IMG/VR virus record: IMGVR_UViG_2541047766_000003
DNA: 42,126 nt
Source of the DNA: a virus
Lineage: Duplodnaviria; Heunggongvirae; Uroviricota; Caudoviricetes
Strand: one strand, 5' to 3'
Made by a program: the position numbers and the translations under genes. The notes under the pieces were generated by a model that saw only the letters and a program-made list of their open reading frames with translations, did not search any database and was not told the DNA's origin. Below, in pieces: positions 1,150 through 37,027 of the stretch. Position 1 is the first letter of the stretch. Each line of letters begins with the position of its first letter.

Positions 1150-1862
1150 GCCTATAAGGCTCTCTTACCAGCCGCGCCCTAACAGGCGCACACGATCTGA
1201 CATTTGCATCCAACTTCGTTACTTACGGCCCGTAAACGGGCTGCCCGGATAGGGAATCGATAACTGCTCTCCCATTTTATCCTCTTCAAGCTGGTGCTTT
1301 ATGTAATCCTGTATCTTCGCCGTGTTCTTACCCACTGTATCGACGTAGTACCCTCTGCACCAGAACTCCCTGTTCCTGTATTTGAATTTCAAATCACCAA
1401 ACTGCTCGTAAAGCATCAGACTGCTTTTCCCTTTCAGATATCCCATAAACCCGGATACGCTCATTTTAGGCGGGATCTCCACAAGCATATGGATATGATC
1501 TGCACAGCATTCAGCTTCCAGAATCCGTACGCTTTTCCACTCACACAGCTTTCTCAAAATACTGCCTATTGCTCTACGCTTCTCTCTGTAGAACACCTGT
1601 CTTCGGTATTTTGGCGCAAAAACTATGTGATATTTACAGTTCCATCGGGTGTGCGCTAAGCTCTTTTCGTTCCCCATTGGGACCCCCTTTTGATTTCTTG
1701 TTTGACACTTGCAGTTGCCAGACCGCAAGGTGTTTTAACAAATCAAAAGGGGTTTTAATAACTGGCTCAAAGCTGAAAGCTTTCCGGAACCCCCAGCCTA
1801 GCTGGGGGTTTTCTGTGCACAAAAAACCCTCTGTAGTAACAGAGGGTTTTGTTCATTCATAG
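1150..1862 (-). mobile_element. IS200 (IS200/IS605 family) insertion; boundaries approximate
   Basis: Contains a tnpA whose product matches IS200 TnpA as recalled; two hairpins upstream of tnpA (aaaaccctctgt-agtaa-cagagggtttt and cccccagcc-tag-ctggggg) typical of the IS200 left end; size ~0.7 kb. Confidence 0.75.
1219..1677 (-). CDS. tnpA: IS200 transposase TnpA (Y1/HUH type)
   Basis: 152-aa product MGNEKSLAHTRWNCKYHIVFAPKYRRQ... with HxH motif (ADHIHMLVEIPPK); start chosen at internal Met of the track ORF 1219..1728. Confidence 0.9.
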   Translation of the reverse strand: MGNEKSLAHTRWNCKYHIVFAPKYRRQVFYREKRRAIGSILRKLCEWKSVRILEAECCADHIHMLVEIPPKMSVSGFMGYLKGKSSLMLYEQFGDLKFKYRNREFWCRGYYVDTVGKNTAKIQDYIKHQLEEDKMGEQLSIPYPGSPFTGRK

Positions 1863-1976: not shown

Positions 1977-2474
1977 TCAGTGCCACGATTTTTGCTTCTT
2001 CAGTGAATCGTATTGCTGCTCGCAGAATTCCCCTGCGATACGATACTTTTCAGCCTCAGCTGCTGTTGCGTTGTAAACTCGGTTGCTTTCTTCAAGCATG
2101 TCGGCGAGCACACCGATGACCTTGCTGGCTGGCGTGCCAGGGGGGAAAGATCCGGTATAGTGTTCGGCGAGCCGCCTGGTTTTGTCAAGCTCGGCGCGCA
2201 TGCTGTCAGCAGCGGAATTAGCATACTCAGCATCAGCACGCGCCGCATCGATACGGGATTGTGCTTCACGTTCAATTTGTGTTTTCTCCTGCTCACGCTG
2301 TGACCTTAACTTATCATCAGCCTGTTTCTGATCTTCCTTCGCCTGCGCATACCCGGCATCGTACTGACGGATGCCGTGCACATTCCAGGCAACAACTCCT
2401 GATATGACCAGAACAGCAAGCACCGCCATGATAATCAACTGTTTCCGGTATGCTTTTACGAATGCCCAGATCAT
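1977..2474 (-). CDS. Rz: Rz-like i-spanin
   Basis: N-terminal TM helix then charged coiled-coil body; start overlaps endolysin stop; contains an embedded +1-frame lipoprotein ORF. Confidence 0.7.
2000..2248 (-). CDS. Rz1: Rz1-like o-spanin lipoprotein embedded in Rz
   Basis: Embedded ORF with signal peptide and lipobox LLTAC, Pro-rich mature part; start set at internal Met (MRRVLMLSM...). Confidence 0.5.
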   Translation of the reverse strand: MRRVLMLSMLIPLLTACAPSLTKPGGSPNTIPDLSPLARQPARSSVCSPTCLKKATEFTTQQQLRLKSIVSQGNSASSNTIH

Positions 2475-3100
2475 ACCGCCAGCACCTTACTGGCATTGAT
2501 GTATCGCGCGCGCCGGTCGTCGATGCCGTTCCGGCCACCATTGATAATCAGAGTTACACGTGCAATATCGCCGGTATACTTCATGCATCCTTTGCTGGCA
2601 AAGAACCACGCCGCGCTACGAGCCGCGTATTCGTCCTGCGCCAGCAGTTCAGGACTCTCCAGCAGGTCAACCTTAAGACCGTTTCCACAGTCACGATAGT
2701 TATTCAAACCGGTAACCTGGATAAGCCCGCGCCCACGGTAGTTCCAGCCATCACCAGGGGCATTGTTCCCCATGCGTTTGCTGTACACCAGATTGGCAAT
2801 CGCTCTCTGGCGCTCAAGTGGCAATGGTGGTTCGCCTGCACGTCGCCCCAATGCGTTGGCCTGTCCCTGAGTGAGACGCCCAGCCCGAACAAAGTTAGCC
2901 AGTCCGCTGACGCTGTAGTTGAAATTCTCCTGCAACCGGGTGAAGCCTCCAGACTCATGCCCGACCTGAGCAATAAACATAGCCTGATCTTCTGGTTTGC
3001 TGATACCAAACTCTTTCATCGCAGAAGTTATATGCGAGAACCAGCGTGCGGCCAGTGCCTCGCTGATACCAGCAGCTCGCTGGAATTGTTTAATCTCCAT
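2471..3100 (-). CDS. Endolysin, glycoside hydrolase family 19 (chitinase-like)
   Basis: [20 protein letters not shown]...[12 protein letters not shown]...[12 protein letters not shown]; resembles the SPN1S/epsilon15-type endolysin as recalled. Confidence 0.9.
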
Positions 3101-3398
3101 GTTTAGACCTCGATACTTTGAAAATTTGAACGACGTTACCGCGCGTTTTAATAACCGCAGCTAGCATGACAGCGTTGATAATGACCTCAGATAAATCCAC
3201 AGCCATTGGCGTACGTAACCAGATTGCATAGGCGACACGAACAGGAATACTGGCCGCAGCAACAATCAGGAAATAAGCAAGCCATCCTCCCCACCTTCGG
3301 TGTTGAGAGCCGTTACGCCGGAATGTGACAACGCGAATTGCTATGCCAGTGCAAATAACTGCATTGGTGATAAGCAAAAAAAACTCATGCGTTACCAT
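3090..3398 (-). CDS. Putative holin (small multi-TM protein)
   Basis: Hydrophobic segments, charged C-terminus, immediately upstream of the endolysin. Confidence 0.55.
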
Positions 3399-3798
3399 CG
3401 TCTTTTCTCCCCGGAATTAACTCGCGTGGATTATCGGAACGGTGATAGAGCCATATACCAATACGCACAGCGACAATTGCTGACACGAATGCGCCTGCAG
3501 AGAAAACAATCCCTTCTTCAAAAGAGTCCTGCGTGATGGTAGGGATCAGGCTGGCTATGCCGATAAGAATTGATGCTGCTGGTTTGTAAAAGAGAAGGCC
3601 GCAAAGAAAGCTGAGCATCGACAGGAGCACCCGGCGACGGATGGGGTACTCTACTGCAGAGGTAACAAAAATTACCGCTCCAGCCAAAGCACCCAAAGCA
3701 ACCTCAGGAGGAACTCCTGCTATCACCGCCGCCAGAGAACTCATGCTAAGCCACTGATTTAAAGTTTCACTGGTTAGTTGAGCTGACATGTTTTCCAC
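3385..3798 (-). CDS. Putative holin/antiholin-like membrane protein
   Basis: Several predicted TM helices; first gene of the lysis cassette. Confidence 0.5.
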   Translation of the reverse strand: MENMSAQLTSETLNQWLSMSSLAAVIAGVPPEVALGALAGAVIFVTSAVEYPIRRRVLLSMLSFLCGLLFYKPAASILIGIASLIPTITQDSFEEGIVFSAGAFVSAIVAVRIGIWLYHRSDNPRELIPGRKDDGNA

Positions 3799-6593: not shown

Positions 6594-6630
6594 TTTGCAA
6601 AACGTGCTGGATAGCAAACAAATTATTTGA

Positions 6631-6650
6631 TACTGTATAAATATACAGTT
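6631..6650 (+). promoter_or_regulatory. LexA (SOS) box
   Basis: tACTGTataaatatACAGtt = CTGT-N8-ACAG with AT-rich spacer, 20 bp before the ATG at 6670. Confidence 0.7.
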
Positions 6651-6669
6651 ATTGCATGGAGAAGATAAG

Positions 6670-6927
6670 ATGCAGCAGTATCACTATCCACTGGAAGACG
6701 GATTTACCGAAAGGATTCACACGCCGGGAGGCGTCAGGTCACTGGTGGAGGGATCGCACTTGATGAAATTACTCCGGGATCTCGATAAGGATGGATTTAA
6801 TGTCGATGGCCCACTTGCCGAACTGACTGCACTGATTAACTACGTCACCAGCTCACAGATGTCTATGCAGGATCTGCAAACACATCTCGACTATTGTGCC
6901 GAACAATTACGAAAACAAACCACATAA
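6670..6927 (+). CDS. Small protein (85 aa) homologous to C-terminal domain of the Bro-N protein; candidate SOS-controlled antirepressor
   Basis: RBS ggagaag then ATG; ...LMKLLRDLDKDGFNVDGPLAELT...DLQTH aligns with the C-terminus of 8075..8770 (...LMNLLNQLQDDGHDVSGAAAELT...DIQTH). Confidence 0.6.
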   Translation: MQQYHYPLEDGFTERIHTPGGVRSLVEGSHLMKLLRDLDKDGFNVDGPLAELTALINYVTSSQMSMQDLQTHLDYCAEQLRKQTT

Positions 6928-6932
6928 AGAAA

Positions 6933-6950
6933 AGGCCGCTAGAGCGGCCT
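6933..6950. terminator. Hairpin terminator between convergent genes
   Basis: aggccgc-taga-gcggcct; T-run follows on the minus strand. Confidence 0.5.
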
Positions 6951-7677
6951 ATCGTTTCGCTTTGTGCTCGTCCCAGCACGTTTTACACCATGCCATTAAG
7001 CCATCCGCATTTTGATTATTAGGGTAAAAGCTGGTTCGTTTTCTGCGGACATTACAAATTGGGCACCACTTCATATGACGTGTATTCTTTGGGCCATCGA
7101 GACACCTTGCACACCACTTAGTCAATCCATCTGGATTTTTTGACGATTTCCTGAACTTCTCATACGGAAGGTTTATTCTGCATCGCAAGCACTGCTTGCT
7201 ACCACTTGAAACTCTGTTAGCTGATTCTTCTTTTGGCGGCGATACAGAAGGTATTCTTGCTGGCTCTGATACTGCCTGAGGTGCTTTTTTAGATGACTGA
7301 GACGATATGTCATCACCAGGGAATCTTCCATGATATGCCGGAGGCGTTGACACTCCAGGTGGAAGCTCAGCTGTAAACGGCTTTGGCTGAATCAGTTGCC
7401 TCTCTTTTGCTAACTCCTGCTGTTTATAATATGTCTGGATTACCGCACTATCATAAGCAGGAGGTGCGGAAATATTAGGCGCATTACCTCCAGTTTTTTG
7501 AAACTGAGTAGAGGTGTGTTCTATCACCTGTGTACGATTAATCGTTATCTCCCCATCTTCGGTCTTTATCGTTTTGTTATGATTAACGACCGTACGATCA
7601 GAGATCTTAGTCTTGTTCTGGTTGATAACGTAAATAATCACCGCAACCACACCAACAACTATCCAGAAAACTTCCAT
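6949..7677 (-). CDS. Membrane-anchored protein with two PPAY motifs and a tandem C-terminal zinc ribbon
   Basis: N-terminal TM helix (VFWIVVGVVAVIIYVI); APPAY and TPPAY; four CxxC pairs (CLRC, CARC, CPIC, CKTC). Confidence 0.6.
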   Translation of the reverse strand: MEVFWIVVGVVAVIIYVINQNKTKISDRTVVNHNKTIKTEDGEITINRTQVIEHTSTQFQKTGGNAPNISAPPAYDSAVIQTYYKQQELAKERQLIQPKPFTAELPPGVSTPPAYHGRFPGDDISSQSSKKAPQAVSEPARIPSVSPPKEESANRVSSGSKQCLRCRINLPYEKFRKSSKNPDGLTKWCARCLDGPKNTRHMKWCPICNVRRKRTSFYPNNQNADGLMAWCKTCWDEHKAKR

Positions 7678-7697
7678 TGCTTTTCCTCACAATAACA

Positions 7698-7712
7698 TTA
7701 CCTTAAAGGTAA
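7698..7712. promoter_or_regulatory. Operator-like palindrome TTACC-TTAAA-GGTAA overlapping the promoter of 6949..7677
   Basis: 21 bp upstream of the minus-strand start; TTGATC -35-like element upstream on the minus strand. Confidence 0.5.
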
Positions 7713-7790
7713 TATCTTGCTTTCAGGTGATCAAGCGCTAAACGCCACCAACCAAATACGGTTGATTTTTATATACCTCCGCGCTTATCA

Positions 7791-7805
7791 TTACCTTTGC
7801 GGTAA
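7791..7805. promoter_or_regulatory. Operator-like palindrome TTACC-TTTGC-GGTAA with rightward promoter (TTGATT-18 bp-TATCAT)
   Basis: -35/-10-like hexamers immediately precede the palindrome; would transcribe toward the Bro-N gene. Confidence 0.45.
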
Positions 7806-8074
7806 ATTTACATCGCACTCCTCTTGTGTCATAGTAATCGGGCACTGGAAAAATCCAGTGCCGGGATTGGCGTCCCGGATTACTAAAAGGCGCATTCACC
7901 GCGCAAGCGGTTTTTTTATGCGTATAGCACGGCCACATTCGTATTATGGTGGGCTGTGTGGGGGCACCGAAAGGTGCGCCGGGTCCTTTTAGCCGGTTAC
8001 GCCAACCCTGCACAGTTCACCACCAACCGATTGGCGTCGGTAGTGGTGATTAACCAGACTAAAAGGTAACCACT

Positions 8075-8770
8075 ATGACAGCTACAAAAAGCACGTCCAT
8101 TTTTTCTTTCGAATCCCAAGCCGATATACGGGTAATCGTCATTAATGGTGAGCCATGGTTTATCGCTTCAGATGTTTGTCGGGCTATAGGCATAGCAAAC
8201 CATCGAGATGCTGTTCGAAAACTTGATGATGATGAGAAGGGCGTCGCTTCAACCGACACCCCTGGCGGTGAGCAAGAATCGATCATCATCTCCGAGTCAG
8301 GCCTCTACACACTGATCCTCCGCTGCCGCGATGCGGTGACACCAGGCACTATCCCCTACCGCTTTCGTAAATGGGTTACAGGTGAGGTTCTTCCTCAGAT
8401 CCGCCGCACCGGAAGTTACATTAAAAACTCGCTCCCGCAGGAAGAACGCATAAAGATGGTTGCCGACCAGGTAGCCAACGCCACGGCGTCAGCAGTAATG
8501 CAGGCGATGAAGATAGAGAACAAAACCTACAGCGCCCCGCTGAAGCCCGGCTACCGTAGCCTGATTCACTCGCCGTCTGGTGTTCTCGGCCTGACGGAAA
8601 ACTCACTGCTGATGAATCTGCTGAACCAGTTACAGGACGACGGGCACGATGTATCGGGCGCGGCGGCGGAGCTGACCACCATGTTCTGCTACATCGTCGG
8701 TGTGAGCAAATGCCTGCGTGATATCCAGACGCACGCGGAGTACATCAACGACAAAGCAGGGTTCTTCTGA
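8075..8770 (+). CDS. Bro-N domain protein, antirepressor-like
   Basis: N-terminal Bro-N signature (FSFESQADIRVIVINGEPWFIASDVCRAIGIANHRDAVRKLDDDEK); C-terminal domain is paralogous to 6670..6927. Confidence 0.8.
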   Translation: MTATKSTSIFSFESQADIRVIVINGEPWFIASDVCRAIGIANHRDAVRKLDDDEKGVASTDTPGGEQESIIISESGLYTLILRCRDAVTPGTIPYRFRKWVTGEVLPQIRRTGSYIKNSLPQEERIKMVADQVANATASAVMQAMKIENKTYSAPLKPGYRSLIHSPSGVLGLTENSLLMNLLNQLQDDGHDVSGAAAELTTMFCYIVGVSKCLRDIQTHAEYINDKAGFF

Positions 8771-8797: not shown

Positions 8798-8842
8798 AAA
8801 TAATTCTGTACAGATTGCAGACTGTGGGTGAATAGCGTACTA

Positions 8843-8857
8843 TTACCTTAAAGGTAA
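8843..8857. promoter_or_regulatory. Operator-like palindrome TTACC-TTAAA-GGTAA overlapping RBS region of 8870..9037
   Basis: Identical 15-mer to the 7698 site; ends 13 bp before the ATG. Confidence 0.5.
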
Positions 8858-8869
8858 AGGAGGCGCGAT

Positions 8870-9037
8870 ATGACAGCGTTGAAAAATCGTACTCAGCACA
8901 ATAAACAAGCCAAGCAATGCTGGGATGTCATTGGAAAAGTTATGCTTGGCCGCGCAAGCAAAGAGCGCGACAAGGATATGGTTTACCAGACAGGAACATC
9001 TTTCAGCGACTTCAAGGCGGCATTTCGCTCCAAATAG
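8870..9037 (+). CDS. Small basic protein (55 aa), unknown function
   Basis: Strong RBS aaggagg 7 nt before ATG; not in the ORF track because under 60 aa. Confidence 0.5.
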   Translation: MTALKNRTQHNKQAKQCWDVIGKVMLGRASKERDKDMVYQTGTSFSDFKAAFRSK

Positions 9038-9057
9038 AAGCACATCAGGAGTTTTCC

Positions 9058-9498
9058 TTGAAGTTTAACATTAGAATATCTAATAGTTTTCTACATGGGG
9101 AAAGCAACACCCCTTTCGCTGTAGACGGACCTTTCCTTACTGATGATGAAATAAAAATCATACAAAGTTTTTTAGAGGATGTTGCCAATGGAAGGGCGCT
9201 TGTTGGAAAAAACAAGCCCTCGTGGGTTGATGATAACCATGATAAAATTCCCGGCTCAGACAATTATGAGCAAGAGAATTATTGGCATTATCATTGTGGG
9301 CCAACATGGTATCCAAACACATTTAAGAATTATACCATTAACTTAAATTTCAACCCTGGCGGAAGGCATTCTAATGAATGCATTCATTATGCAAAAAATG
9401 ATAATGAAATTGTCATTGTTGGATTTTCAAGAGAACACATACCTTTCCTTTCATCAGATGGAAACAACAATCCGCTTTTTAATGATGAAGAAGAATAG
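9058..9498 (+). CDS. Hypothetical AT-rich accessory protein (~146 aa), probable TTG start
   Basis: Open frame has no internal Met after the track start at 8917; RBS caggag 5 nt before TTG 9058; AT-rich; acidic C-terminal tail. Confidence 0.45.
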   Translation: MKFNIRISNSFLHGESNTPFAVDGPFLTDDEIKIIQSFLEDVANGRALVGKNKPSWVDDNHDKIPGSDNYEQENYWHYHCGPTWYPNTFKNYTINLNFNPGGRHSNECIHYAKNDNEIVIVGFSREHIPFLSSDGNNNPLFNDEEE

Positions 9499-26322: not shown

Positions 26323-26359
26323 TTGACATTTAACGCACGAATTATTACCTTTCAGGTAA
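26323..26359 (+). promoter_or_regulatory. Promoter-like TTGACA plus operator palindrome TTACC-TTTCA-GGTAA
   Basis: Architecture parallels pL (ttgacat...attattacc...ggtaa); faces the tRNA/Gp49 islet. Confidence 0.45.
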
Positions 26360-35706: not shown

Positions 35707-35976
35707 TCAGCTTGAATGTTGTGGGGAGGAATTAATCATGATCTGCTTAATCTCTGCCCTGATACGACGGTTTGATTCCATGGTGCACTCAACACAGTGT
35801 CCGTTGTAAACCCAGCGTTCACTGTCATGTCCGTGCTTACATGTTTTTCCGGTGTAGTAGCGTTTAAGTCCGCGCTTTGCGGCATCAATACGTGTAATGA
35901 TTTCCATGGTAAGCCCTGTTATTGGTATTGGGATTACGGTCATTTTGTGCTGACACAAAAAAAAGATCAACCACAT
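35707..35976 (-). CDS. Hypothetical protein at cII position (Cys/His-rich), start uncertain
   Basis: ORF after a tR1-like terminator downstream of the cro-like gene; alternative starts at MTVIP or MEIITR. Confidence 0.4.
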   Translation of the reverse strand: MWLIFFLCQHKMTVIPIPITGLTMEIITRIDAAKRGLKRYYTGKTCKHGHDSERWVYNGHCVECTMESNRRIRAEIKQIMINSSPQHSS

Positions 35977-36057: not shown

Positions 36058-36288
36058 TCATGAGTAGAAGAAGTATGCCAGTTCTGCTTTTGAGCGCAGC
36101 CATTGTCTTGTTTTACAGGCTTTAAAAAGCCCATTCATCAATACTTTACCTGGCATTTTGCGCTTACCTGTTAAGTGAGTCTGGATATAATGACTCGTCG
36201 TTCCGGCTTCCTGTGCGAAGGCTTCACGCTCATCCGGAGTAAGTGCAAGCCAGTGCTTTTTGAAATCGAAATGTCCGTTATCGCTCAT
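36058..36288 (-). CDS. Cro-like HTH regulator
   Basis: Divergent from the repressor; HTH segment EAFAQEAGTTSHYIQTHLTG. Confidence 0.6.
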   Translation of the reverse strand: MSDNGHFDFKKHWLALTPDEREAFAQEAGTTSHYIQTHLTGKRKMPGKVLMNGLFKACKTRQWLRSKAELAYFFYS

Positions 36289-36324: not shown

Positions 36325-36387
36325 TCACCCATAAGGTAACAAAAATCAAGGATAGTTACCTATGGGGTGCATTTACCTATTGGGTAA
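36325..36387. promoter_or_regulatory. OR-like tripartite operator
   Basis: Three palindromes: tCACC-CATAA-GGTAA (36325..36339), TTACC-TATGG-GGTgc (36356..36370), TTACC-TATTG-GGTAA (36373..36387). Confidence 0.6.
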
Positions 36388-36442
36388 TATTGCTTTAAAT
36401 TGAATCATCTACTGATTCATATATGAGGCGATTTTCCAGAAA

Positions 36443-37027
36443 ATGAAAAGTATCCAGGACGTCCGCAGGCAAAATCTCAACGACTTGATCGACCGTGAAT
36501 TCAATGGTGTTCAGACGCGGATGGCTGAAAAACTTGGAACTCAGGCAAATCTGGTAAACCGCTGGGCTCTTGGCAAGAAGGTTATCGGCGACCAGGTTGC
36601 GCGAAAAATTGAAGCTGCCGCCAATAAACCCCGTAACTGGCTTGATATCGATCGCTCGCTTTCTCAGGAAGGTTTTCAGCCTGTCGGCCCAAGCGACATT
36701 GGTCAGCTGGCGGCTCACAACCTGGAACGCTGGATGAGCGAAAGCCGCGACCTTTCAACACAGGGAAAACTTCACCGCGCATCCGGCGTCGCCCAGGTGA
36801 CAATCAGCCGCCTGTTAAACAATGAGGTCAGCGTTTCCATTTCCACCCTGGAGAATGTTGCATCTGCATTCGGGCGTCACGGATATGAACTACTGATTCA
36901 CCCGCACGACCCTGCAACTATCAACTATGACCGCTCGCGCTACGCATTGTTACCTGAAACCGAGAAAGCAAAGATCGAAAGTTACATTGAATTTGTCATC
37001 AACCAGAACGAAAAAAACAAACAATAA
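36443..37027 (+). CDS. Prophage repressor, dual-HTH, without LexA-like peptidase domain
   Basis: Position between the divergent cro-like gene and the pL-side operon; two HTH-like segments; no Ala-Gly/Ser-Lys S24 signature. Confidence 0.7.
   Translation: MKSIQDVRRQNLNDLIDREFNGVQTRMAEKLGTQANLVNRWALGKKVIGDQVARKIEAAANKPRNWLDIDRSLSQEGFQPVGPSDIGQLAAHNLERWMSESRDLSTQGKLHRASGVAQVTISRLLNNEVSVSISTLENVASAFGRHGYELLIHPHDPATINYDRSRYALLPETEKAKIESYIEFVINQNEKNKQ

Follow-up and report, generated by a model that had tools for sequence, protein, structure and literature searches.

What might a small membrane protein with a tandem zinc module do for the temperate phage that encodes it, when its gene lies beside an antirepressor module? 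This question is raised by a gene, here called X, in a window of 42,126 nucleotides (the whole stretch of DNA analysed, IMG/VR record IMGVR_UViG_2541047766_000003). An earlier note had described its product as a membrane-anchored protein with two PPAY motifs and a duplicated zinc ribbon, and had proposed a superinfection-exclusion factor or a host-interaction protein. The features of the locus are collected in Table 1.

Table 1. Coordinates of gene X, its cassette and control elements in the window, with the basis of each assignment
Feature	Position	Strand	Details and basis
X cassette (terminator, gene, promoter/operator)	6928..7780	.	extent relative to phiV10, which is without the cassette
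Bidirectional terminator, G+C-rich hairpin AGGCCGCTCTAGCGGCCT	6933..6950	.	includes the TAG stop of X
CDS of protein X, 242 aa	6949..7677	-	ATG start; ORF listing; PHROG 6762; PGAP 'hypothetical protein'
Zinc ribbon 2, residues 197-242	6952..7089	-	C205, C208, C231, C234, plus conserved RRKRTSFY stretch; Cys, pLDDT, PHROG matches
Zinc ribbon 1, residues 159-196	7090..7203	-	C163, C166, C189, C192; beta4-alpha unit
Hypervariable disordered Pro/Ser/Gln-rich linker, residues 59-158	7204..7503	-	carries both PPAY; pLDDT and variability
Conserved juxtamembrane segment, residues 21-58, predicted beta-hairpin	7504..7617	-	TIKTEDGEI.I.RTQV; conservation and AF2
N-terminal transmembrane anchor, residues 1-20, predicted N-out/C-in	7618..7677	-	hydropathy and AF2
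Shine-Dalgarno GAGGA	7683-7687	-	5 nt 5' of X ATG; read directly from the sequence
Operator O1, ATTACC-N5-GGTAAT, perfect 17-bp palindrome ATTACCTTAAAGGTAAT	7697-7713	.	20-36 nt 5' of X ATG; covers -10
Inferred X promoter	7706..7734	-	-35 TTGATC (7734-7729), 17-nt spacer, -10 TACCTT (7711-7706)
Plus-strand promoter TTGATT-18-TATCAT	7762-7791	+	abuts O2; promoter scan
Operator O2 at the divergent isrK-C4-ant promoter	7790..7806	.	93 bp from O1
Putative master repressor, 194-aa HTH protein	36443..37027	+	phrog_8 transcriptional regulator, E 4.5e-27; operator clusters on flanks

A conserved accessory gene in its own cassette

Protein X is matched over its full length by phrog_6762 (E 1.2e-149), and a homology search retrieved 33 homologs; orthologs across the Enterobacterales are 40-63% identical, and the annotation of an E. 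coli RefSeq chromosome lists X as a hypothetical protein of 242 aa. The reading frame is intact, with all four CxxC pairs, in 80 of 80 related IMG/VR loci. The start MEVFW or MEIFW is common to every homolog, and GAGG/GAG is kept in the aligned leaders of the orthologs. X is thus far an uncharacterised gene, but a genuine and conserved accessory gene of a temperate E. coli phage, and the element that hosts it is an epsilon15/phiV10-type (Uetakevirus) prophage. In phage TL-2011b, the corresponding region is annotated as a 1089-bp misc_feature 'similar to hypothetical protein', which would make X a pseudogene or part of a longer gene; this reading was rejected because the additional 360 bp are the isrK/C4 RNA leader of ant and the starts of the homologs are all identical in position. 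An NCBIfam search with X gave no match, and the PADLOC-DB v2 defence-protein models yielded 0 families at E <= 0.1.

Among complete E. coli genomes, 114 of 5426 (about 2%) carry X. It occurs in only six phage records, which represent three phage types, TL-2011b (two records), Yersinia YeP4/5/6 and Aeromonas phiARM81mr, and phiV10, ZX5 and most of the Uetakeviruses sequenced do not have it. In the window, the gene is located between the ejection-protein and tailspike genes, beside the C4-RNA/ant module. A convergent gene, 6670-6927(+), ends 6 nt from the X terminator, a hairpin of seven pairs, six of them G-C, followed by a T-run (terminator scan, minus strand). In phiV10, no more than about 30 nt separate the stop of the p19-like gene from the ant operator/promoter downstream, and the matches of phiV10-like phages to 6600-8100 are confined to its flanks. 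With an inferred promoter and a terminator of its own and a clean presence/absence pattern relative to phiV10, X is a self-contained moron of the immunity/accessory region. A role in lysis was considered and rejected because the holin/endolysin/spanin cassette sits elsewhere, at ~1977-3798.

The neighbourhood of X, read from IMG/VR loci and per-protein look-ups (a scan of genome contigs yielded only two loci), differs between phage types. In Uetakevirus-type prophages, the gene always occupies the ejection-protein/tailspike slot, with Bro-N, Rha or KilA-N antirepressors and toxin-antitoxin pairs as neighbours. In phiARM81mr, the X homolog lies 18 nt after an S24-type cI on the same strand; in a metagenomic relative (38% identical), the homolog again shares the strand of an S24-type cI and lies downstream of it, separated by one intervening gene, and on a second metagenomic contig (99% identical to phiARM81mr) the homolog is likewise downstream of the S24 repressor on the cI strand. 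No partner gene is conserved beside X across the loci compared.

The operator and the predicted promoter of X

The 17-bp palindrome of O1, an operator reportedly described in the epsilon15 genome paper, has 15 matches in the window compared to 1.1 expected, and because of this excess it is taken as a genuine operator of the phage. An element of the O1 type is found at equal distance 5' of the orthologs in Enterobacter, Serratia and Pectobacterium prophages, and in Providencia a different palindrome is found at the corresponding position. The geometry of -35, 17-nt spacer and operator is kept 5' of X orthologs in four genera, TTGAnC being fixed 16-17 nt from the operator half-site within otherwise diverged upstream regions, and the operator at 26344 displays the identical arrangement (TTGACA-17-TACCTT). 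In Enterobacter-type loci, a terminator lies directly upstream, and the predicted site is therefore the only remaining room for a promoter. A generic promoter scan does not call it, because its -10 matches only 3/6 positions. Transcription would be expected to start around 7699-7703 (minus strand). The -10 of the inferred promoter falls inside the perfect O1, in agreement with the promoter overlapping an operator palindrome that had been claimed for this gene.

Operators are also found near the gene of the putative repressor, at 36372 (plus two degenerate copies just upstream), 37084 and 37146, and operator clusters surround the repressor and cro-like genes. From the distribution of sites in the window, the operator may be assigned to the master repressor, and the 194-aa protein presumably represses X. 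Because its -10 is embedded in a perfect operator of the master repressor, a stable lysogen is not expected to express X. Since O1 covers the -10, synthesis of X would require the repressor to be missing or inactivated, a condition expected early in infection, upon induction or through antirepressor action, and the divergent C4-RNA/ant operon would be switched on simultaneously. The lambdoid homologs look co-transcribed with cI, and the timing that this implies differs from that of the operator-controlled X.

Irrespective of its function, X provides a clean example of a Uetakevirus-type master operator wired onto an imported accessory cassette, with one divergent control region serving both this cassette and a P1-like C4-RNA/antirepressor module.

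Anchor, linker and zinc module

The Kyte-Doolittle profile of X (19-residue window) has its maximum of 2.33 at residue 1 and stays at or below 1.0 in the rest of the protein, and AlphaFold (AF2) models a helix at residues 3-20 with a pLDDT of about 90. Hydropathy and structure prediction agree on one hydrophobic segment, as expected from the single N-terminal transmembrane (TM) helix of the earlier note. The segment is well conserved (mean pairwise identity of 0.72 among orthologs); the N-terminus is non-positive in 59/59 relatives, and the flank C-terminal of the helix is positive in 49/59. We infer that X is a bitopic inner-membrane protein with a cytoplasmic C-terminal part. In the juxtamembrane segment, columns T36, K38, T39, G42, E43 and T49 are conserved among orthologs, and the pattern is still present in distant relatives; AF2 places strands at 26-39 and 42-55, albeit with low confidence (pLDDT 45-56). 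Across 31 orthologs and 59 family representatives, the TM helix, the hairpin and all eight Cys are kept, whereas the linker is not.

The linker is the fastest-evolving part of the protein. Its pLDDT is below 50 along most of its length, its mean pairwise identity among orthologs is 0.17, its length in the family varies between 32 and 104 residues, and the E. coli alleles display 47 non-synonymous vs 20 synonymous codon states. Both APPAY (residues 71-75) and TPPAY (111-115) are indeed present in this Pro-rich stretch, with PPAY cores at 72-75 and 112-115. Given the linker composition, two PPxY are improbable (P = 0.0026, shuffling), as one might expect if both were functional ligands of WW-type domains mediating an interaction with the host. 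However, the site of the second motif reads STRPAYH in 46/55 E. coli alleles and STPPAYH in only 3/55, the first motif is present only in E. coli-type alleles, and no PPxY at all was found in orthologs outside the E. coli type. Moreover, both motifs lie in the hypervariable disordered region, and WW-domain partners are essentially eukaryotic, whereas the linker of X would be located in the cytoplasm of a bacterium. Because the motifs are not conserved in homologs, an outcome that the earlier note itself had counted against its WW-ligand idea, the second PPAY is judged to be a private substitution and the pair evolutionary noise rather than a selected feature; the probability that we would give to functional PPxY ligands is close to nil.

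The C-terminal module contrasts with the linker in its constraint: only 6 non-synonymous vs 27 synonymous codon states are found among the E. coli alleles, and the module appears to be under strong purifying selection. The four CxxC pairs start at 163/189 and 205/231, and the fold is predicted with confidence (pLDDT 92-97 in AF2; Cys invariant). A duplicated zinc ribbon had thus been recognized correctly, but not its spacing, which is CxxC-N22-CxxC in both repeats, as in 111/118 ribbons across the family, instead of 16-18 residues. Roughly 70 protein clusters combine a TM segment with two ribbons. The net charge of the module is +7 to +19 in 59/59 relatives. Besides the eight Cys and W188, residues K161, F175, D183, G184, K203, R212, D225, G226, L227 and W230 are near-invariant in the family, and no conserved catalytic His or Asn is found among the invariant or near-invariant columns of its 59 members. 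The ribbons probably bind zinc, two ions per chain being expected.

Several similarities of the module lead to proteins acting on DNA. The zinc module matches phrog_2633, phrog_5558 and phrog_2255, and these matches coincide with the zinc modules of 'endonuclease VII', HNH and primase families; a Foldseek search of viral models retrieved tandem zinc modules of HNH/beta-beta-alpha-Me endonucleases (E down to 2.6e-7), among them dozens of viral HNH proteins. Residues 161-193 match Pfam Stc1 (PF12898) with 21.0 bits (E 5.1e-4), which is below the gathering threshold of 24.8 bits. The X profile retrieved 82 soluble relatives, of which 41 match Pfam Stc1 at E <= 1e-3 (best 3.4e-18); their partner domains are Endonuclease_7 (9), HNH (9) and helicases. 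The top Foldseek match in the PDB is the Stc1 structure 2LUY (E 4.6e-3, probability 0.84), with a poor global superposition (TM 0.32 on target), and a profile search of PDB sequences retrieved only PacI, marginally.

The structural CxxC...CxxC zinc site within a beta4-alpha repeat, as found in HNH/beta-beta-alpha-Me endonucleases (PF01844, PF02945), is present in X, and the repeats might accordingly be imagined as an active HNH-type enzyme that cuts DNA at the membrane. This is highly improbable: X has no Pfam HNH or Endonuclease_7 match, it has no conserved His or Asn to serve as general base or metal ligand, and the part of the nuclease relatives that matches X is an accessory N-terminal module and not the catalytic domain. 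With catalytic residues and domains missing, the nuclease reading was rejected. Removal of the zinc-ribbon domain from a phage HNH nickase resulted in weaker activity and relaxed site recognition (PMC3592412). The module of X appears to belong to the Stc1 type, and its resemblance is to zinc repeats that accompany phage HNH/EndoVII nucleases without being catalytic; its charge and domain associations suggest that it binds DNA. A literature search on Stc1 in phages, zinc-ribbon exclusion proteins or the X family found nothing.

Possible roles and known systems

Our favoured reading, which we consider plausible and hold tentatively, is that X may be a DNA-binding protein that is tethered to the membrane, controlled by the repressor and involved in exclusion or a defence-like function. 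It could be realized in the following manner: Two or three N-terminal residues would be periplasmic, followed by the TM helix and the juxtamembrane hairpin; a freely evolving, disordered spacer of 30-100 residues would separate the hairpin from a rigid, very basic tandem Cys4 module at the cytoplasmic end. Anchor and flexible leash would place this polyanion (DNA)-binding module at the inner membrane face, where it may act on DNA that enters or is located at the membrane. The most likely biological role would be an exclusion or defence-type action against other incoming phage DNA. Superinfection exclusion is our leading functional guess for reasons other than PPxY, namely because the accessory slot that the cassette occupies, between ejection-protein and tailspike genes, adjoins the ant module and because distant homologs lie directly downstream of cI.

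Some observations run counter to this reading. Classical exclusion genes of prophages are expressed in the lysogen, whereas X, judging from its operator, should be silent in a stable one, and the interface of an arms race would be expected to diversify, whereas the zinc module seems to be under purifying selection. As to DNA binding, the domain in 2LUY, the only solved Stc1 domain, is a protein-protein adaptor.

The tandem zinc fingers might bind protein, as S. pombe Stc1 and LIM domains do, and X would then be an adaptor that sequesters or recruits its target at the membrane. Candidate targets are host factors (of cell division, a protease or a polymerase) and the repressor or antirepressor in the phage's own immunity circuit, and X would accordingly tune host takeover or the lysis-lysogeny switch. 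We regard an adaptor as possible, though rather doubtful. It would be in keeping with the Stc1 hits, both the best solved-structure match and the sub-threshold Pfam match, and with the position of X, which always adjoins immunity regulators (Bro-N, Rha, KilA-N antirepressors or cI); the strong purifying selection on the zinc module would suit a conserved protein target. The architecture is ZipA-like (the JGI pipeline labels one X homolog, P0181, as 'ZipA'), and the equivalent C4-ant operon of P1 carries the division inhibitor icd. On the other hand, the positive charge of every member points to a polyanion, the nearest relatives of the zinc module are attached to DNA enzymes, no conserved partner gene adjoins X, and neither ZipA_C nor another protein-binding domain is matched.

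Returning to the favoured DNA-binding reading, X may in a more specific form represent an undescribed class of single-gene, membrane-tethered DNA sensors or excluders in the immI/ant (podovirus) and cI-operon (lambdoid) immunity regions, which we deem unlikely. The basic zinc heads would bind DNA emerging at the inner membrane face and jam its entry; alternatively, many heads on one DNA could cluster the TM helices and hairpins and so open a lesion in the membrane, which would amount to abortive infection. In this model, the conserved TM and juxtamembrane residues would exert the effect, and the hypervariable leash would serve solely for spacing.

If an exclusion or defence role holds true, the design would be new and very compact, one TM helix and one DNA-binding zinc module acting from the cytoplasmic side, and it would be present in about 2% of complete E. 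coli genomes and in prophages of many Enterobacterales. It would also imply that a Stc1-type zinc ribbon, otherwise associated with nucleases, can be put to new use in a protein that has no nuclease. If X is merely a regulator or a tether, it would be an ordinary hypothetical phage protein.

Among known exclusion systems, SieA of P22 is comparable to X, being a small inner-membrane protein whose accessory gene is flanked by those for the ejection proteins and the tailspike; sieA adjoins immI (mnt/arc/ant), and X adjoins C4-RNA/ant. The P22 gene lies beside mnt and is up-regulated on induction (PMC10883804). The two proteins differ in their number of TM segments, predicted to be three in SieA as opposed to one in X, and SieA lacks a cytoplasmic zinc domain; lysogens express SieA, whereas the -10 of X is covered by an operator; and SieA targets the gp16/gp20 conduit, whereas the conserved business end of X is predicted to be cytoplasmic. 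The Pfam and PHROG searches showed no sequence similarity to SieA, and the PHROG matches of X comprise only phrog_6762 and the zinc-module PHROGs, none of which is a SieA or exclusion family. Lambda rexAB and BTP1 bstA are located beside cI, a position resembling that of the X homologs of phiARM81mr and the two metagenomic contigs; this likeness is positional only, without homology, and X in the window is ~29 kb away from the repressor gene.

The p16.7 protein of phi29 is an early membrane-anchored DNA-binding protein whose C-terminal domain has been solved. It shares with X the outline of an N-terminal TM anchor, a spacer and a C-terminal nucleic-acid-binding domain (putative in X), as well as early expression (predicted in X, under repressor control). 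By analogy, X could anchor the phage's own replicating or incoming DNA to the membrane for replication or packaging. We consider such a genome tether improbable: X is dispensable, as seen from its absence in phiV10, ZX5 and most sequenced Uetakeviruses, it occupies an accessory slot rather than the replication module, and the cI-operon placement in lambdoid relatives implies expression in the lysogen. A profile search of all PDB sequences revealed no similarity to p16.7, the C-terminal domain of which is a helical dimer, whereas that of X is a zinc ribbon.

ZipA, the FtsZ membrane tether of E. coli, has in common with X a bitopic topology of type Ib (predicted in X), charged residues next to the membrane, and a globular head in the cytoplasm at the end of a long, flexible linker rich in Pro and Gln. 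In X, however, the head is a pair of zinc ribbons, and the C-terminal FtsZ-binding domain of ZipA has no Pfam or NCBIfam match in it. The zinc module itself appears to be most closely paralleled by Stc1 (PF12898, 2LUY) and the zinc domains of HNH/EndoVII nucleases (Hpy99I 3FC3, PacI 3M7K), which, like X, consist of two consecutive CxxC-N22-CxxC beta4-alpha units. X differs from the nucleases by the lack of any enzymatic domain, nuclease or otherwise, and from the soluble Stc1-type relatives scanned in that its module is fused to an N-terminal membrane anchor via a disordered linker.

Gene X and its cassette

The window is a temperate phage or prophage of E. coli, of the epsilon15/phiV10 type (Uetakevirus). 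Phage TL-2011b shares 98.3% identity with it across 6600-8100, a region in which phiV10-like phages align at the flanks only. In phiV10, the operator/promoter of ant lies within ~30 nt of the stop codon of the p19-like gene, and at this junction the window carries ~850 bp extra (~6928-7780), comprising a terminator, the gene of the 242-aa protein X and its control region (Table). The full length of X aligns with PHROG 6762, a family of unknown function (E 1.2e-149). PGAP labels it 'hypothetical protein' in E. coli chromosomes, and the TL-2011b annotation covering it is a misc_feature of 1089 bp, no more. The extra 360 bp upstream in that feature were rejected as coding: Rfam finds the isrK-like and C4 antisense RNAs there.

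X is a real gene whose conservation is sharply modular, as measured by mean pairwise identity among orthologs and by codon states in 38 distinct E. coli alleles. The ORF is intact in 80 of 80 related IMG/VR loci, and 33 homologs of 173-242 aa come from Escherichia, Superficieibacter, Enterobacter, Citrobacter, Salmonella, Serratia, Providencia, Pectobacterium and Buttiauxella, the Buttiauxella copy sitting in a small element flanked by a recombinase. The family occurs in 114 of 5426 complete E. coli genomes and is rare in sequenced phages, with six records of three phage types: TL-2011b (two records), Yersinia YeP4/5/6 and Aeromonas phiARM81mr.

Features of the X cassette, operator sites and conservation of the parts of X (identity, mean pairwise; N vs S, non-synonymous vs synonymous)
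Feature	Position	Strand	Remarks
X coding sequence	6949-7677	-	242 codons, ATG start
Shine-Dalgarno of X			GAGGA
Hairpin terminator, G+C-rich	6933-6950		holds TAG stop of X
Predicted X promoter, -35	7734-7729	-	TTGATC
Predicted X promoter, -10	7711-7706	-	TACCTT; 17 nt after -35; left half of operator 7697-7713
isrK-like RNA	7842-7917	+	Rfam, 76.7 bits; leader of ant
C4 antisense RNA	7942-8027	+	Rfam, 77.7 bits; leader of ant
Bro-N antirepressor gene (ant)	8075-8770	+	
Operator sites (15)	3430, 6578, 7697, 7790, 8842, 17070, 26344, 29486, 29504, 33979, 34041, 35987, 36372, 37084, 37146		
TM helix	residues 1-20		identity 0.72; N vs S 4 vs 3
Juxtamembrane	residues 21-58		identity 0.57; N vs S 11 vs 10
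Linker	residues 59-158		identity 0.17; N vs S 47 vs 20
Zinc module	residues 159-242		identity 0.70; N vs S 6 vs 27

Architecture and relatives of the protein

An earlier note had described a single N-terminal TM helix and a duplicated zinc ribbon. The helix is borne out by one hydrophobic segment, residues 1-20; the duplication stands with four CxxC pairs, but the spacing is CxxC-N22-CxxC in both repeats (111 of 118 ribbons family-wide) rather than N16-18. In the AlphaFold model, the TM helix (3-20) and a C-terminal domain of two beta4-alpha units (pLDDT 92-97) are confident; between them come a beta-hairpin (26-55) predicted with low confidence and then the disordered linker. Across 59 family members the eight Cys and W188 are invariant, and K161, F175, D183, G184, K203, R212, D225, G226, L227 and W230 are nearly so. 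None of the 59 has a positively charged N-terminus and 49 are positive in the flank after the TM helix, which by the positive-inside rule would place the C-terminus in the cytoplasm, presumably the sole compartment keeping eight Cys reduced for zinc binding. The zinc module has a net charge of +7 to +19 (median +14) in all 59. In the Yersinia phage YeP5 (locus L009, 1900-2634), the annotated start of the homolog is 29 codons too early, the MEIFW family start being internal, and a (TK)8 repeat directly after the TM helix expands the positive juxtamembrane flank.

The two PPAY motifs of the same note are present (APPAY at residues 71-75, TPPAY at 111-115; P = 0.0026 for two PPxY given the linker composition, by shuffling), but they are noise, not being conserved in homologs, an outcome that the note itself had named as refuting. 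The first is limited to the E. coli type; at the second site, STRPAYH stands in 46 of 55 E. coli alleles and STPPAYH in three, the window included. No PPxY was found in orthologs outside the E. coli type, and the segment holding both motifs is disordered (pLDDT < 50). That they mediate host interaction can practically be dismissed.

Compared with the PDB by Foldseek, X comes closest to 2LUY, the tandem zinc finger of Stc1 (E 4.6e-3), and Pfam Stc1 scores 21 bits, just under its threshold of 24.8. In a viral model library, most of the 35 best matches (lowest E 2.6e-7) are to HNH/beta-beta-alpha-Me endonucleases from phages and giant viruses, at their tandem zinc modules; N-terminal zinc modules of PHROGs labelled endonuclease VII, HNH endonuclease, Lar-like and primase match as well and, marginally, the N-terminal ribbon of the restriction enzyme PacI. 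Hpy99I has two beta4-alpha2 repeats, each holding one structural zinc via two CXXC motifs (PMC2699513), and phage HNH nickases often bear zinc-ribbon domains, loss of one of which weakens activity and loosens site recognition (PMC3592412). An exhaustive profile search with X returned 1732 proteins at E <= 1e-3. About 70 cluster representatives share its plan (N-terminal TM helix and exactly two ribbons, 150-240 aa); 41 of 82 soluble relatives contain Pfam Stc1, with Endonuclease_7 (9), HNH (9) and helicases as partner domains. A Pfam search of X gave no nuclease domain, and the 59-member alignment has no conserved His or Asn; X therefore carries only a non-catalytic, presumably nucleic-acid-binding module, and an active membrane nuclease is most improbable. 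All in all, X is probably a repressor-controlled moron encoding a bitopic, ZipA-like membrane tether, with a basic tandem Stc1/HNH-accessory zinc-ribbon module as its cytoplasmic head.

Two further types of zinc-ribbon protein were encountered. Seven soluble relatives (P0049, P0060, P0064, P0066, P0073, P0079, P0096; up to 2046 aa) form an uncharacterised poly-zinc-ribbon array family, with 7-12 tandem CxxC-N22-CxxC ribbons spaced by basic helical segments. The phage itself encodes a second, soluble zinc-ribbon protein, an 89-aa early-region product (35707-35976, minus strand; phrog_1081) with a single CxHGH...CxxC ribbon and an operator directly upstream, which also matches the N-terminal module of 'endonuclease VII' phrog_1035.

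Operators and predicted control

The window contains 15 matches to the palindrome ATTACC-N5-GGTAAT, versus 1.1 expected. A tripartite OR-like cluster (~36326-36388) lies between a cro-like gene (36058-36288, minus strand) and the gene of a 194-aa HTH repressor (36443-37027, plus strand), and operators also come in pairs, both past the end of the repressor gene and at other promoters; from these clusters we infer that the palindrome is the phage's master operator. The epsilon15 genome paper reportedly describes a similar 17-bp operator. Operators also occur at tailspike, late-operon and tRNA promoters, and the dispersed layout resembles that of P1 control.

As noted earlier, the predicted X promoter overlaps such a palindrome: a perfect copy just upstream of the X start (7697-7713) covers the predicted -10, which is weak (3/6 consensus positions). 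The -35/spacer/operator geometry is kept upstream of orthologs in Enterobacter, Citrobacter-type, Serratia and Pectobacterium prophages, the surrounding sequence having diverged. In Enterobacter-type loci, a terminator immediately upstream leaves no room for a promoter elsewhere; Providencia has another palindrome, TTAACC-N5-GGTTAA, at the equivalent position. The arrangement TTGACA-17-TACCTT recurs at the 26344 operator. Another operator (7790-7806), 93 bp from the first, overlies the start of the divergent isrK-C4-ant promoter. This layout suggests joint repressor control: in a stable lysogen, the repressor would shut both X and the ant operon, and infection, induction or antirepression would free them together.

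Enterobacter/Citrobacter-type prophages (L069-L074) have a second palindrome, TGTGACATGTCACA, ~45-60 nt upstream of the X start (~3935-3950 in L070). It adjoins the upstream side of the -35, just past the terminator; a further regulator may bind there.

Genomic homes and possible roles

In Uetakevirus-type prophages of five genera, X invariably lies in an accessory slot flanked on one side by the tailspike gene and on the other by those of the ejection/internal virion proteins. There it is found next to antirepressors (Bro-N, Rha or KilA-N/ANT) and toxin-antitoxin pairs (HicAB; in the window, a YafO-like gene), and no conserved partner gene was found across these prophages. A second home is seen in the lambdoid Aeromonas phage phiARM81mr, whose homolog has the same TM-hairpin-linker-two-ribbon plan. 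It follows an S24-type cI by 18 nt, counted from stop to start, has its own Shine-Dalgarno and is not separated from cI by a terminator. A 99% identical metagenomic contig has the same order, and for a relative at 38% identity one gene intervenes between it and another S24 repressor gene upstream.

Several neighbouring features of the window deserve mention. The tandem isrK-like and C4 RNAs before ant represent P1/P7-type immI control in a Uetakevirus, and this stretch is ~80% identical to unannotated DNA of many Stx-converting phages. The convergent neighbour of X (6652-6927, plus strand; probable true start ATG 6670), an epsilon15 p19 homolog, is phrog_450; as this domain also forms residues 148-229 of Ant, the neighbour is a free-standing copy of the antirepressor C-terminal domain. 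The start or frame of the YafO-like toxin gene may be misassigned: the ORF 8917-9498 (plus strand) matches phrog_5954 from residue 49 only, TL-2011b splits this stretch into two genes (59 aa and a YafO-family toxin of 181 aa), and the operator 8842-8858 directly precedes a Shine-Dalgarno and an ATG at 8870. A full-length STnc490 Hfq-binding sRNA (1687-1810, minus strand; 146 bits) lies near the lysis/spanin end.

X may act in an exclusion or defence-type role on DNA at the inner face of the membrane, a prediction we make tentatively. Its head resembles a DNA-binding module, and the gene recurs in two places, the ejection/tailspike slot next to ant and the site behind cI, where genes of the sie, rex and bstA types are classically found; however, a PADLOC search gave no match, silence in the lysogen is predicted, the head is under purifying rather than diversifying selection, and Stc1 itself is a protein-binding precedent. 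X could instead be an adaptor sequestering host or immunity-circuit proteins, which seems unlikely, and a tether for the phage's own DNA, similar to phi29 p16.7, is less plausible still.

Pfam, NCBIfam and PHROGs hold no name for the family, and no account was found in the literature of a membrane anchor fused to a nuclease-less Stc1-type ribbon pair, or of its link to immunity regions. Fold and cassette logic are already of known kinds. In the slot corresponding to that of X, P22 carries sieA-orf59a-mnt(-arc-ant). SieA is an inner-membrane exclusion protein, and induction raises sieA transcription, too (PMC10883804). The X homologs downstream of cI, in turn, are in the position of rexAB in lambda.
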